Assembly (NCBI GenBank): GCA_951406725.2
Contig: OX597826.1
Span: 15,934,001-15,998,000 of the forward strand
Direction of reading: 5' to 3'
From: Octopus vulgaris
Lineage: Eukaryota
Length of the DNA: 64,000 bases
How positions within the stretch are numbered: position 1 is the stretch's first letter; each line of letters opens with the position of its first letter. A model generated the notes under the pieces. It saw only the letters and a program-made list of their open reading frames with translations. It searched no databases and was not told the DNA's origin. Both the position numbers and the translations under genes were made by a program. Of this stretch, positions 2,190 through 56,699 are shown one piece after another.

Positions 2190-2510
2190 CATCATTTACA
2201 CTTCACAATTATTTGTCCTCATCATGTTTGTTGTTAACACAATGTTTCATCTGGTGTATCCTCCAGCCTTCATCAGGTGTCTTGGGGAAATTTCGAACCT
2301 GGGTTCTCATTTCTCATGTATTTTTCGATATTGTTATTATTATTATTATTATTATTATTATTATTATTATTATTATTATTATTATTATTATTATTATTAT
2401 TATTATTATTATTATTATTATTATTATTATTATTATTATTATTATTCAGATCACTGCCTGGAATCGTACTCGGAATCTTGGGGTTAGTAGCCCGCGCTCT
2501 TAACCACTAC
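2190..2510 (-). mobile_element. tRNA-headed SINE with (TAA)n linker and HHR tail (family C), left arm
   Basis: Minus strand: GTAGTGGTTAAG (A box) ... GAGTACGATTCC (B-box-like), (AAT)n, body CATCGAAAAAT...HHR; homologues at 27-28 kb and 43.7 kb. Confidence 0.85.
2236..2281 (-). ncRNA. Hammerhead motif family C, decayed stem II/III
   Basis: GACAC-CTGATGA-A-GGCTG...CCAGAT-GAAA-CA-TT-GTGTT. Confidence 0.7.
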
Positions 2511-2760
2511 GTAGTGGTTAAGATGATGATGATTATAATAATAATAATAATAATAATAATAATAATAATAATAATAACAACAACAACATCGAAAAATGCC
2601 TTAGGAATGAGAACCCAGGTTTGAAATTTCCCCAAGACACCTGATGAAGGCTGGAGGGTATAGCAGCCGAAATGTTGTGTTAGCAATAAAGAAGATGACG
2701 ACAAATATCCGTCAAATGTAAATAATGTACATAATTCCTCATCTCTTAATTATAGAACTG
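2511..2760 (+). mobile_element. Family C element, right arm (head reduced to A box)
   Basis: GTAGTGGTTAAGA, then (ATA)n, then body ending TATAGAACTG; inverted relative to 2190-2510. Confidence 0.85.
2636..2681 (+). ncRNA. Hammerhead motif family C
   Basis: GACAC-CTGATGA-A-GGCTG-loop-CAGCC-GAAA-TG-TT-GTGTT. Confidence 0.8.
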
Positions 2761-2774
2761 AAATTCAATAATGT

Positions 2775-2967
2775 TTTCTTCAAAATTTAGCACAAAGCAA
2801 GAAGTTCGTGGGTTAGGGTAAATCGATAACATCGATCCCAGTGCTCACTGGTATGTATTTTGTCGACCCCAAAAGGATAAAAACCAAAGTCGACTAGGAA
2901 CATAAAGTTAGACGAAATGCCGTTACGCATACTGCCCGGCGTACTAACGATTCGGTCAGCTCACCAC
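2775..2967 (-). mobile_element. tRNA-derived SINE (Nin/Deu-like core), decayed
   Basis: Reverse complement similar to 63861-64000. Confidence 0.7.
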
Positions 2968-5664
2968 ATTGAAGGACTAATTATAATACCTAATATCATA
3001 AACGAGGGCTTCATGAATATAACATTATCCCACTTTTACAGGCTGAAAGGGAATAAAATCATTTTCCGATACTATAAACCTGTCAGAGACAGCGAAAGTT
3101 TTTGATTAAGCAAATTTACGTGATATTTCGCTGACTGCTCATTTGGTAGCTGTTCTGATTGTTATTATTTTTGGAATTACTAAATCGGCGAGCTGGTCGA
3201 ATCATTAGTACGATATGCAAAGTGTTTAGCGGTAATCATAGTCCAAATGCCCTGAAGCCGACTTCGCATTTCGTTTTGGTACTCTTGTTTTCAAACCATG
3301 TAGGGCAATACTAACGGTGTCTTCCACCTCTAGGATTCCGATGACAACTTCCACTCTTGGAGCTTATAAGTAATACTGGTAGAATGATTTATATTGTGCA
3401 TTATAAGCAGCTGAAGTCCAAACAAAATAAGAAACACATTGCTAACAGATCCTGTCGTGTTGTGTTGCAGCTTTAGTGGTACTTCAGCGTCTAGCAAACA
3501 CTTAACACTAAGCCTGATTTCTGTCTCTGGGTTCTCATCTTCTTTCACGCGCAATTACTTCATCTAAATTTTGCAAGCTATGCACATTTTTCTGTACCAT
3601 ATTCTCCCACATAAAGAGCTCTTAAATAGATATATTGATTCGTGCACTAACTGACACATCACAAGAACTCGATAGACCTTCACATTTTCATTTATCACTC
3701 GCATAATAACGTAAACATAACAGTGATAACACATAGCTATATTTAAGATATTTGCTGAATGGCTACATAAATGTTTGATCGTGAGAAAGATTCTTTCATT
3801 TCCTGAAAGTTGACTAGCATAACTATATATTCAAAACTGCCTTATCACATCATTAGAACATCAAAGTTAATGTGGTATGGTAATCTTCGTAGCTGGCTGA
3901 GAAAAATAAACCGATTGTTATTTTCAATAACCCACATTAACTGAATATTTCAGATAAATGAAGCTGAGCTGGTATGACGCTGTTGATAAAATATATTGGA
4001 CATACCGTCGACCGCAACCGTGAAGTCTTTTACATTGATTATGTAGTAATTCTAACCTTTGAAAATACAGTGATTTTATAAGATCGAATTTTAAAAATAA
4101 ACTAAAAATAATAACAGAATCAACATCAATGAATTGATATCATTAAGTAGTTAAGTGTTCCTGGTTCATAATCTTTAAGAAGCCTTAACGGTAAGCGATC
4201 TTGCTCTTCGTAGTTCATAGTAACTGATTTTGATAGAGATAAGCTATGCATTTGTGGCCAGAAATAACAACGTGACGTCACAGGTGTTGCAGGGTAGCAT
4301 TACTACCTCTATATTTACCTTTCTGTTTAATCGTATATACAGAACAGTTTCTTCCCTCTTCATAAAAAAGTGGTAAGTCGGTTCGCTACATCTATTTAAA
4401 CGCATGTATATATAAATATGTGCATGCAAACATATACACACCTGTGTGTGCGTGTGTGATTGTGTGCGCGCGTGTGCGTGTGTTTGTGTGGGTGTATGTT
4501 TGTGTATATAAGGATAGGGTTAAAATCCAAGCTGTGACCTCTTCAAGTATATCTGCTTATTCCAATCCTTCGGAGTAGTTCGTAGATGTTATATTTGTGT
4601 GATTCATGCATAAGAACTGAAATCCTTGCAAAAGTGTAAACATCAGAGTAATTATATATCATTTATTCCTCATTTCTCCTATTTCATTTGCCAATAGGAG
4701 TTACAGACTTCTCCATCTGGGAGAAATATCTAATATTATCTTACATGTACGACTCTGTAACTCCTGTCAGCGAATGAAACACTTGAAATTATTACTAATA
4801 CTTAAATATTGTTTCAGGTTTCTTGTTTCGTCATATATATATATATATATATATATATATATATATATATATATATATATATATATAAATATAAATATAT
4901 ATAAATATATATATATATATATATATATATATACATATACATATATATACATATATACATATATATATAGAGAGAGACCCTCCTATGACACACCTACACC
5001 TGTACATATACAAACATATGCACCAGACACAGTCTTACACTCATAGTCATACATATACACACAAGTACACATTCACACAATTAGAAAGGAAAAATTGAAA
5101 AAATATATATAAAAAAAATAAAATATTTAAAATTACAAATTAATGAAAGTTAAAACATATGGAAAAGCTTGTGCAGGAACATTGTAAAAATGTTGATTCT
5201 AGCCGTGTTTTGGTGGGGCCGGAAACCGTAACAGATATTGTGTGACATATGGAAATGATTGCAAAACTTCAGTTCTTCGATTGAGACATGTAGTGGGGTT
5301 CAATGAACTTTTCCAGATGAGCCGTCTTTCCATATTAGAAAGGCCGCACTTGCCTCTAACGTTGGTATAAAGTTTACACTTGGCTAAGATCTTCCAGTAA
5401 ATCATGTAGGTGACACCTTGTTCTTTTAAGAACCATATATAATTGGATAATTATATATACGTATAAATGTCTAAACATATATGCATTATGTCACGTGGAT
5501 GCAAACACCTATGTGTATTTAAGGATGAGGTTGCGTACTGTTTGTTCTAAATTATAACATATATAAATAATCCTCTATTTTTCTAATTTCGCGGTTACTA
5601 CTTCTGTTACTACTTTTTATTAGTATTATATATATATATATATATATATATATATATATATATA

Positions 5665-54500: not shown

Positions 54501-56188
54501 CAAACCTTGTCATCTACAACTTTCTATGAAAATTTTACTCCCTTTTTCTGTTCTTTCTTTTCTCCCTGAGTATTCGAAAATGTAAACATCATTTTCATTG
54601 CAAAAACACTACTGTCTTCTCTAATTGGACATATATAGGAACATTTGTATGAAACCTAAAAACTTTAATATATACATTTTTGTGTGAAAATGTTATCTTT
54701 CTTTTCTCCCTGACTACGCGAACAGGTAAACATAACTTTTATTGCAACTACACAATTCAATGCACGATAAAAAAAATGTTAAGGAAGTAAGCACCTGCCA
54801 ATATAGACAAACTGCACAATTACAAAAGCTATAAACCACAGCAAAACTTATAAAAAGGAAAGTAAGGAAAAAAACATAAAATTCAGAAATTCAAAAATTC
54901 AACGATGTGAACATCAGAATATATACTATTTTTTTCTATCAGTAATTAAAAATAGAGCAAGGTGAATTGCGTTTTTTCGAGGCCAAGGTCAGTGTTGTCA
55001 TTGATCGCTAGTAGTAGTAAACGCAGTTGACCTCTGCTGACTTAAAGGGTGTGAGGCCTCTTTTGTCTTCTTATCGCACAGGAATGACCATTGCTGACCT
55101 CACCATTTCGCAAATCTTTTCACAGACCTGTAGAATTTTGGTCTATTCATCAAACTGCTACTCTTCCTCCTCCTATTCCCTTCAACATTCACGTATTTAT
55201 TAATATCTCAAGTACAATACAAAAGTTGAAGCTAAACAACATTTAATATATTTTAATAATAAATGGAAATAGTGATAACGGTAATAATAGTGGTGATAAT
55301 AATAATAATAATAATAATAATAATAATAATAATAATAATAATAATAATAATAATAATAATAATAATAATAATAATAATCATAATAATAATAATGATAATA
55401 ATAATAATAATAATAATAATAATAATAATAATACGTCTATATAATCTCAAAATTTCCTTATGGCTTCTTAAGCATTCTCTAGAACAAAACATTCTCTATG
55501 CACAAAAGCAAATATATGGCACCCTAGGCATAACACCAACATGAAATTGTAACTTGTTGTCTCTTGAGGTCTCTGAGTGAGACTTGGAACCAACTTGTAC
55601 AAATGCAAAGCAAAAGTCAAACATAGAAATAATAATAATAATAATAATAATAATAATAATAATAATAATAATAATAATAATAATAATAATAATAATAATA
55701 ATAATAATAATAATAATAATAATAATAATAATAATTATTATTATTATTATTATTATTATTATTATTATTATTATTATTATTATTATTATTATTATTATTT
55801 GTTAACTGCAAGCGTAAACAGATTGTTTATAAATAGAAAGAATGGTGGCAGAGAACTAATTAGTATAGACCATTGTATAAGGAGTGAAAGGAGAATGCTT
55901 GCCGAGTATTTGATAAATAGCAACGAAGATCTGCTGCAATATACCGGGAACCATATTATTATTAGAAATATTGCATTTCTAAATTTCTCAGAGAGATTTA
56001 TGTAGTAGCAGCACGATAAAGTGATGGTGTGTTGCCAACTTAATGTGACAGTCCCAGGAAAGGGAAGAATGCCATTGCTATTACGCCCCAGGAAACACCA
56101 TTTCCAGTTGATTGTGTGACACAAGCGTTCCCTGTCCTTCAGTTTTCAAACAGGGGAGATAAACACCACCACTCAGCAAAGTCAGCAA

Positions 56189-56229
56189 CCAGAGACTAGT
56201 TTCAGAATCATTATTCTTCCTCAGCCTGG
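56189..56229 (-). ncRNA. Type I hammerhead ribozyme family F, canonical
   Basis: CCAGG-CTGAGGA-AGAAT-aatg-ATTCT-GAAA-CTAG-TC-TCTGG: GUC cleavage triplet, palindromic ACTAGT. Confidence 0.92.
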
Positions 56230-56466
56230 ATTACTTTGGGATGATAGCTGTCGATGCTTCTTCGCTTTTGAAAACTTATAGAATTTCAGGTGAAATAAAT
56301 TCATTTCGACAGTATGTTGGCAACAAACCATCACTTTATCGTGCTGCTACTGTATAAGTCTCTGTGAGAGATTTAGAAATTTTGTAGATCAGTTAATTTA
56401 TTTCATTCGAATTTCTATAAGTTTTCAAAGGAGAATAGGCATCGACAGCTAGCAAGCCATTCTACT

Positions 56467-56507
56467 CGAGACTGATGATGAGCAATGACTCTGAAACTAG
56501 TCTCTGG
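56467..56507 (+). ncRNA. Type I hammerhead ribozyme family F
   Basis: CGAGA-CTGATGA-TGAG-caatga-CTCT-GAAA-CTAG-TC-TCTGG; closing pair of stem II mismatched. Confidence 0.8.
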
Positions 56508-56699
56508 TTGCTGGCTTTGCTGGCTGGAGATGTTTGTCTCTCCTGTTTGAAAATTTAAGGACACAGAACGTTTGTGTCACATACCCAACTGAAAACGGTG
56601 TTTCCTGGGGCTAAATAGCAGTAGCATTCTTACTTTTATTGGGACTTCCACATTCAGCTGGCAGTAAGCCATCATCAATATCTATAATATTATTATAAT

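Follow-up and report, generated by a model that had tools for sequence, protein, structure and literature searches.

Head-to-head inverted pairs of hammerhead-bearing repeats in a 64-kb window of octopus DNA, and their possible origin by priming at both ends of a staggered cut

Inverted pairs in the window

The window, a 64-kb stretch of DNA from Octopus vulgaris, contains four named loci at which non-coding, hammerhead-bearing repeats of three families (A, B, and C) form head-to-head inverted pairs, with the 3′ ends directed outward at each of them. The components of these loci, together with a solo copy and a fifth pair, are as follows.

Locus 1 (family A)
2178..2184: left target-site duplication, 7 bp, AATTCAA, chance about 0.012
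2185..2510, minus strand: left arm, subfamily alpha, short 3′ end; tRNA-like head at about 2447–2510, (AAT)n, and hammerhead core at 2270–2276
2498..2523: junction palindrome, perfect, 26 bp; its centre falls within the A-box-like section of the head
2511..2761, plus strand: right arm, subfamily beta, long 3′ end with a tail of about 30 nt; 13-bp remnant of the head, (AAT)n, and hammerhead core at 2641–2647
2762..2768: right target-site duplication

Locus 2 (family B)
5665..6372, minus strand: left arm, 408-nt tandem units (about 1.7); exact core at 5864–5870 and decayed core at 6274–6280; the short 3′ end abuts (TA)n
6387..6947, plus strand: right arm, about 1.4 units, long 3′ end with a 45-nt tail

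Locus 3 (family A) and solo copy
26931..26939: left target-site duplication, 9 bp, TATTGCAGT, chance about 0.001
26936..27245, minus strand: left arm, subfamily alpha, long 3′ end with a tail of about 48 nt; no head, (AAT)n, and core at 27067–27073
27262..28292, plus strand: right arm, subfamily beta, short 3′ end; head at 27262–27332, interrupted (AAT)n, and core at 28220–28226
28293..28301: right target-site duplication
43661..43893, minus strand: solo family-A copy, subfamily beta, with the head and most of the tail

Fifth pair
52930..53345, centre 53140: weak inverted pair of the same head-to-head polarity

Locus 4 (family C)
55953..55960: left target-site duplication, 7–8 bp as judged by the empty site, ATATTATT
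55961..56303, minus strand: left arm, one 343-nt unit, core at 56218–56224
56309..56681, plus strand: right arm, about 1.1 units, core at 56472–56478
56687..56694: right target-site duplication, after 5–11 unassigned bases that follow the right arm

Self-comparison aligned the arms at 84% in locus 1 (2190–2329/2588–2727, E 5e-36), 75% in locus 2 (5665–6154/6387–6902, E 5e-93), 85% in locus 3 (27002–27130/28163–28292, E 8e-34), and 76% in locus 4 (56022–56674, E 5e-125). The first core box is exact in seven of the eight arms: all four left arms carry CTGANGA on the minus strand, and three of the four right arms carry it on the plus strand. The core of the locus 2 right arm (6691–6697) has decayed to CTCATGA, and this arm was oriented by homology. 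A later, unrelated repeat of 570 bp (about 27490–28061) lies inside the (AAT)n of the locus 3 right arm. These results bear out the original prediction as to inverted arms with outward 3′ ends at four places in three families, as well as to arms differing in sequence and truncation point. From this arrangement it had been proposed that both 3′-OH ends of a break prime reverse transcription on separate RNA templates.

The window self-comparison yielded eight short-range inverted loci, five of which carry a hammerhead-like core, and all five are head-to-head; the loci at 7.4, 9.4–9.8, and 12.5–13.0 kb, without a convincing core, cannot be oriented and were excluded from the polarity count. The fifth pair, absent from the original prediction, has a near-zero spacer and a hammerhead-like core in the left arm only (52979–52985, minus strand, fold z 0.07). 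Taken alone, this polarity at four of four loci has a chance probability of 0.06. Each of the four includes an inverted 5′-truncated copy joined at its 5′ side, as in non-autonomous derivatives of Penelope-like elements (PLEs).

That inverted pLTR arrangements occur in Penelope-like insertions, as stated in the original prediction, is in print (PMC3846280; PMC8557442). According to Arkhipova 2013, the head-to-head arrangement is "most frequently observed" among Penelope elements, and it comes with target duplications of 8–10 bp and a tail on one arm. Since the bias is already published (PMC3846280, PMC8557442), the head-to-head polarity is ordinary for the Penelope class and is not a new rule. 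Passages from PMC10886601, PMC8232201, and PMC13282606 contain nothing on polarity.

Outer ends and target-site duplications

Target-site duplications of 7–9 bp (7–10 bp at locus 4), all AT-rich, lie outside both outer ends in three of the four loci, in agreement with the published duplications (8–10 bp, AT-rich). At locus 3, the last four bases of the left duplication (TATTGCAGT) fit the end of the element equally well, and at locus 4 the chance probability is 0.002–0.09, depending on length and tolerance. At locus 2, which adjoins (TA)n, a duplication was looked for at the outer ends and none could be resolved, which runs against a two-template view.

In all four loci, the 3′ end is long in one arm and short in the other; the one-sided tails (about 30, 45, 48, and 53 nt) somewhat exceed the published length of about 30–40 bp, and the short 3′ ends of the two family-A loci differ by about 15 nt. 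In each locus, the long-ended arm reaches less far in the 5′ direction; independent templates would not call for such a linkage, which counts against them. A palindrome such as that of locus 1 is absent from the other three junctions; this perfect 26-bp palindrome is the kind of structure predicted by the published self-priming model and in that respect speaks against two templates.

In locus 4, the long 3′ end, with its 53-nt tail, belongs to the left arm, which spans a single complete unit between two long ends, whereas the short 3′ end of the right arm lies at 56675–56681. Contigs of relatives were taken from four public DNA-type runs. An empty form, in which 55960/55963 is joined to 56695 and both arms are absent, was found in three of the four runs (3, 4, and 4 contigs). 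The insertion is present in near-identical contigs of runs X1 and X4, and the empty form is therefore taken to represent paralogous copies of the host repeat and not the orthologous site. As the duplications enclose both arms and a paralogous empty site exists, each pair is regarded as one insertion.

Among the loose ends listed, family-C 3′ ends fall at 55961–55963 (31, 32, 18, and 23 contigs in the four runs) and at 56016–56017 (24, 34, and 28 contigs in three runs, with 16 at 56030 in the fourth), and locus 4 uses one of each of these two preferred ends. The 343-nt tandem joint of family C was present in 14 contigs over the four runs. Among the 15 joint rows listed of 188, three are head-to-head and there is no 3′-to-3′ joint; three inversions among these 15 are without a stated polarity, and the rows 56054/56593 and 56130/56119, the kind of which is not stated, were left out.

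Subfamily markers of the arms

Both family-A loci combine two arms with different subfamily markers. At four non-CpG sites, the two left arms stand apart from the right arms of both loci and from the solo copy, and no site groups the two arms of one locus (simulated p 0.0002, or 0.004 without a site at the microsatellite edge, from two loci and five family-A copies); with CpG sites included, four shared changes arose in 11% of simulations. Since the solo copy on the minus strand is beta, the markers do not follow strand, and strand-biased mutation was rejected as the origin of the alpha markers. The unrelated flanks of loci 1 and 3 likewise led to rejection of a segmental duplication. Fold-back of one molecule does not predict such mixed markers.

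Family B is uninformative on a subfamily split. In family C, the arms share a minority allele at two sites and show no subfamily split, which goes against two templates. The argument of the original prediction that the arms differ does not discriminate between mechanisms: two tandem units within one arm agree at 81%, and arms at 79–82%, and in family C 32 of the 40 differences listed occur in one arm only. Arm-to-arm identity was therefore discarded as a test of the templates, and arm divergence alone reflects only age.

Identity of the elements

Hammerheads of the PLE type are minimal type I structures with a short palindromic stem III. This description agrees with PMC6765202. Stem III is palindromic in all three families, as in minimal type I hammerheads of non-autonomous PLE derivatives. 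Folding, which covered five of the eight arms of the named loci, gave one arm with z -3.4 and all three stems, and four with z from -1.1 to -2.0. Rfam returned no hammerhead or tRNA family match, either at the gathering threshold or at E up to 10, and the hammerhead assignment is one of motif and fold; a structure-aware scan, which recovered just two of the eight arms among eight matches, was left out of the census.

In the head of family A, A- and B-box-like motifs can be recognized by eye against the consensus. ARAGORN predicted no tRNA gene there, and Rfam gave no match on 27250–27345. All three heads lie before the family-A hammerhead part. Like the schistosome SINE-like hammerhead repeats (reviewed in PMC6765202), to which it is likened by description, family A unites a putative tRNA-like, Pol III-type head with a hammerhead; unlike in those repeats, the head is placed 5′ of an (AAT)n spacer, and the copies are solo or inverted instead of tandem.

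The tandem units of family C (343 nt) and family B (408 nt) are of the kind found in non-LTR retrozymes (about 170–400 nt, type I hammerhead). The window elements resemble metazoan non-LTR retrozymes (PMC7229834; bioRxiv 10.64898/2026.07.22.740005) in the type I hammerhead, tandem units of 340–410 nt, low GC, the absence of a protein, and, for family C, thousands of related contigs, although family A is not tandem in any of its five window copies. The two consecutive complete hammerheads by which a 2026 preprint defines "active" retrozymes are not present, as the second-unit core is decayed in family B and each family-C arm has one core. Word searches of PMC7229834 and bioRxiv 10.64898/2026.07.22.740005 gave no passage on inverted pairs among the places listed (12 of 17 in one search).

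No open reading frame with a reverse transcriptase (RT) and a GIY-YIG endonuclease, as expected of an autonomous PLE, lies at these loci. A Pfam scan of 150 of the 189 stop-free frames of at least 62 aa in the window detected no GIY-YIG, and neither a mobilizing protein nor a matching pLTR was found within that scope; one RT fragment, at 15.8 kb, is unlinked to the inverted loci. A Penelope-like protein probably mobilized the elements in trans. Their copies are old and decayed, and no host function is implied. Metagenome scans gave no match to the family-A word, and two matches to the family-C word were rejected as 30-base chance matches.

Origin of the inverted pairs

In passages of PMC3846280 and PMC8557442, inverted pLTRs of endonuclease-containing PLEs share with the window pairs the head-to-head order, a 5′-truncated inverted copy, partial tandems, a tail at one end, a duplication (8–10 bp) around the whole unit, a junction palindrome, and AT-rich or microsatellite targets. 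The window pairs differ in having no open reading frame, two short arms, and tails of 30–53 nt; their mixed-subfamily arms are unreported in those passages and unpredicted by the self-priming model given there. The PAc (Anolis Poseidon) protein cuts and extends both strands in vitro, prefers ATT, is predicted to be a dimer, and uses two start sites, which define the tail (PMC11167929). The two 3′ start points that set the tail, the ATT-containing targets, templates across the ribozyme cut site, and two-strand extension would all have counterparts here, although our evidence is genomic only and that for PAc is in vitro. The main text of PMC11167929 does not link two-strand extension to inverted pairs.

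We see about an even chance that each pair arose in one event, with a staggered cut whose two 3′-OH ends each served as primer for reverse transcription, on two RNA templates. A Penelope RT/GIY-YIG dimer would nick both strands of an AT-rich site, 7–9 nt apart. Because the arms span the ribozyme cut site, the RNA template would have been uncleaved or circular, and of its two internal start sites one end would use the distal and the other the proximal. Both cDNAs would extend inward, halting at variable 5′ points, and would then be end-joined, where possible via a self-complementary motif that leaves a junction palindrome. Given two-end priming and inward growth of the cDNAs, the head-to-head polarity follows necessarily. 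Such a target-primed reading fits the published two-strand extension by a Penelope protein in vitro. With respect to the original prediction, priming at two ends is supported by evidence not cited there, namely the outer duplications, the empty site, and the long and short ends, whereas separate templates find support at the two family-A loci only and not for tandem families B and C, where one multimeric or circular RNA would serve equally.

We can speculate, at somewhat less than even chances, that Penelope-like proteins routinely integrate as a dimer with two RNAs, using distal and proximal starts on the two nicked strands and joining the cDNAs 5′ to 5′. If so, inverted pLTRs, a hallmark of these elements, would owe their origin to this one mechanism instead of self-priming, as would the one-sided tail and junction palindromes, and each pair would be a recombination product of two source copies. 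The origin of tandem and inverted PLE structures is named an open problem in PMC8557442. Two-template priming and fold-back can be told apart by mixed-subfamily arms within a single target duplication, and with short, high-copy, subfamily-marked elements such as these, counting in one assembled genome could settle the question; the mechanistic value of the window pairs is modest but testable.

It is unlikely that both ends were primed on a single multimeric or circular RNA, with the RTs starting at different tandem units in the style of L1 twin priming. The duplications and the polarity would be explained just as well in this way; families B and C are tandem, more than one unit is present in three of their four arms, and the left arm of locus 4 measures precisely one unit between long ends. 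However, none of the five family-A copies is tandem, the family-A arms belong to different subfamilies, and the locus 2 arms do not abut on the tandem map. L1 also makes opposite-orientation insertions from two RNAs (PMC11702581), which supports the two-template reading; both kinds resemble the window pairs in that RT extends both ends of the break, the duplication is kept, and the 5′ ends are joined mid-insert. L1 twin priming yields arms that adjoin without overlap on one RNA, whereas here the arms overlap over most of their length, although on a multimeric template they could still adjoin. The arms here also begin at fixed internal positions and have no poly(A).

Self-priming, in which an antisense transcript or cDNA folds back and copies itself and the unevenly trimmed hairpin is integrated (Arkhipova 2013), appears unlikely. 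It is the published cause of both the head-to-head bias and junction palindromes, and the perfect palindrome of locus 1, the near-zero spacer of the pair at 53.1 kb, and the constant asymmetry (an extra 5′ part and no tail, as a loop and trimming would leave) are consistent with it. However, it predicts arms identical at birth, contrary to the mixed arms of both family-A loci; in none of the four loci is one arm nested in its partner, unless extra trimming took place, and the ends fall at preferred start sites, like target-primed PAc products. Two successive insertions, with a second copy landing in reverse at the 5′ boundary of an earlier member of its family, would yield mixed subfamilies directly, and PLEs are described as inserting into or beside earlier copies (PMC6765202, PMC11167929); the single duplication that encloses both arms in three of the four loci, with no extra copy at the junctions, and the empty form lacking both arms make this very unlikely, and it would not alone exclude tail-to-tail pairs. 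That the polarity reflects small-number chance, later rearrangement, or loss of tail-to-tail pairs is highly improbable even with four or five pairs and old copies, as the same bias is published for rotifer and other PLEs, no 3′–3′ joint occurs among the 15 joint rows listed of 188, and the duplications, together with the asymmetry of the ends, link the structure to the insertion process.

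Polarity of the inverted pairs

The window (GC content 33.8%) is animal DNA rich in repeats that resemble those of an octopus genome, and parts of it occur in public DNA sequencing runs of five organisms. Inverted arms were found at all four loci named in the original prediction (E 8e-34 to 5e-125, identity 75–85%; masked self-comparison and a repeat finder), listed here together with a solo copy:

2.2–2.8 kb, locus 1, inverted pair of family A
5.7–6.9 kb, locus 2, inverted pair of family B
26.9–28.3 kb, locus 3, inverted pair of family A
43.7 kb, solo copy of family A
56.0–56.7 kb, locus 4, inverted pair of family C

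The CTGANGA core lies on the minus strand in all four left arms and on the plus strand in three of the four right arms, the eighth arm, which lacks an exact core, being oriented by homology; the predicted head-to-head pairs are real. In a fifth inverted pair (52.9–53.4 kb) the core is confined to the left arm, on the minus strand as in the others, and three further inverted loci in the window have no assignable orientation. No tail-to-tail pair within one family was seen among the oriented inverted loci of the window.

Among 15 of 188 joint rows from the contigs, two represent the empty site, six are tandem or direct, one is a colinear mapping swap, three are head-to-head, three are inversions with internal breakpoints and polarity not printed, and none joins two 3' ends, a tally that is supportive rather than a count, since the runs share loci, the contigs are short and the reference itself is head-to-head. 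Head-to-head polarity of pairs of Penelope-like elements (PLEs) is already known (Arkhipova 2013, PMC3846280). The pairs described here are new non-autonomous members of this class, add modest evidence on how such pairs form and offer a direct way to test it; PMC8557442 gives the same inverted structure again and names its formation as unresolved.

Organization of the three families

In each family the core and GAAA occur together with stem II, a stem III that is short and palindromic, and a stem I that closes the structure, the same minimal type I hammerhead form that is reported for PLEs in PMC6765202. Rfam gave no hammerhead match and folding clearly beats shuffles in one of five arms folded, as would be the case for copies in decay. 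Another core-like stretch, itself decayed, lies directly 3' of the family A hammerhead (2692–2720, plus strand, and homologues). The order in family A is tRNA-like head, (AAT)n spacer, hammerhead part and tail, with heads upstream of the hammerhead part in three of three cases in the window, joined to hammerhead and tail via (AAT)n:

2447–2510, minus strand, tRNA-like head
27262–27332, plus strand, tRNA-like head
43839–43893, minus strand, tRNA-like head

ARAGORN and Rfam did not recognise this head; judging from its layout, family A may be a SINE that is driven by Pol III and mobilised by a Penelope protein. Scanning 150 of 189 frames of the window revealed no GIY-YIG domain.

The tandem unit of family B is 408 nt long. 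The two tandem units in the left arm of locus 2 (5665–6154) are 96% identical over their 3' 76 bases and 81% overall, which may reflect conversion in patches or a source array of mixed composition. The family C unit measures 343 nt, and its tandem joint occurs in 14 contigs across four runs; 2,024–3,635 contigs per run align to the 901-base locus 4 stretch, mostly over the element.

Target sites and 3' ends

Each pair reads as a single insertion event. Both outward-facing 3' ends are flanked by a direct repeat at locus 1 (7 bp), locus 3 (9 bp) and locus 4 (7–10 bp), with chances from random position pairs of 0.012, 0.001 and 0.002–0.09, respectively, for boundaries fixed by eye from alignments before these rates were computed. 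Locus 2 adjoins (TA)n, and no flanking direct repeat was seen there. At locus 4, contigs in three of four runs join 55960/55963 to 56695, with both arms and one repeat copy absent; because near-identical locus 4 contigs in two of the public runs (X1 and X4) contain the insertion, this empty form is taken to come from host-repeat copies elsewhere.

At all four loci the 3' end of one arm extends beyond that of its partner, by ~30, 45, 48 or 53 nt. Loose ends of family C cluster at 55961–55963 (four runs) and 56016–56017 (three runs) among 24 of 1,453 rows, and locus 4 uses one end of each kind; for families A and B the two kinds are known from window copies alone.

Source of the two arms

The original prediction took dissimilarity of the arms as a sign of separate templates, but it does not discriminate: at locus 2 the arms are about as diverged from each other (79–82% identity) as the two tandem units within the left arm (81%). 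The proposed comparison with other family members does not discriminate, family A identities being 84–89% within one locus or between loci alike. Among 40 differences from the family C majority (40 of 493 sites), 32 are private to one arm, four rows (two sites) are common to both arms and four have a third letter. Overall arm identity is uninformative on templates.

Support for separate templates comes from subfamily markers in family A. At loci 1 and 3, four non-CpG columns unite the two left arms and set them apart from the solo copy and the two right arms, and no column unites the two arms of one locus. In simulations, four shared non-CpG changes had p 0.0002 and three had p 0.004; letting CpG sites count raised the value to 0.11. 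Strand bias was ruled out as the source of these markers, since the solo copy lies on the minus strand but groups with the right arms. As the arms of one locus differ in these columns and the flanks of loci 1 and 3 are unrelated, each of these two loci, which alone carry the signal, appears to join two source copies.

Formation of the pairs

The most likely route, to which we would give about even chances, begins with a staggered cut that would expose two 3'-OH ends at the target. Both would be extended inward, each on its own RNA, from the two start sites, and the two cDNAs would be joined via their 5'-truncated ends. According to PMC11167929, PAc (the Anolis Poseidon PLE protein, studied in vitro) cuts and extends both strands at ATT, starts at two sites, which define the tail, uses uncleaved RNA and is predicted to dimerize; the main text does not connect two-strand extension to inverted pairs. 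For L1, PMC11702581 describes twin priming and nine insertions built from two RNAs; where the two parts are oppositely oriented, this is attributed to extension of both ends on different templates. No proposal of two-template priming for Penelope inverted pairs was found in the open literature covered, which for retrozymes included PMC7229834 and a 2026 preprint; this is a weak absence.

One multimeric or circular RNA serving both ends is a distinctly less probable source, with which the left arm of locus 4, exactly one unit long, agrees. Self-priming, which we consider unlikely, is favoured by the long-ended arm stopping short of its partner on the 5' side at all four loci. The locus 1 junction is a perfect 26-bp palindrome; two same-sense cDNAs could anneal only via a self-complementary motif, so this palindrome would fit two-template priming as well as self-priming. 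Successive insertion of two copies is improbable: no extra duplication copy was found at the pair junctions. That the polarity reflects chance or later loss is very improbable.

Other repeats in the window

1206–1264, plus strand, candidate hammerhead standing alone, without relative in the window; its cores are exact, stem III is palindromic, stem I has 6 bp and stem II is long, and it scored highest in a structure-aware scan
1553–1680 (minus strand), 20069–20203 (plus) and ~43035–43070 (plus), solo copies of another repeat family, whose core resembles that of a hammerhead but is altered (CTGTTGA ... GAAA)
13481–13510 (plus) and 29595–29627 (minus), lone exact CTGATGA cores with possible stems, which may be decayed hammerheads or chance
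7412–7572, 161-bp palindrome (self-complementarity 91%) without spacer or hammerhead core, flanked by (TA)n tracts
9372–9831, inverted pair around (TG)(GA)/(TC)(CA) tracts, built as the 53-kb pair; its sole core-like motif has two mismatches and lies beyond the left arm
12520–12970, MITE-like, 30-bp terminal inverted repeats 450 bp apart
18527–18801, 27490–28061 and 54240–54298, repeat residing in (AAT)n tracts; the second copy splits the right-arm spacer of locus 3, and the third has its own two ends joined
15800–17400, 17580–18264, 35900–37700 and 56800–60400, decayed LINE-like remnants, the first with an RT fragment found by Pfam (15817–16035)
39960–40208 and 50226–50663, both minus strand, Mariner-type transposase fragments (Pfam Transposase_1, HTH_48)
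40822–41190, two 187-bp direct copies (95% identity), hammerhead core not seen
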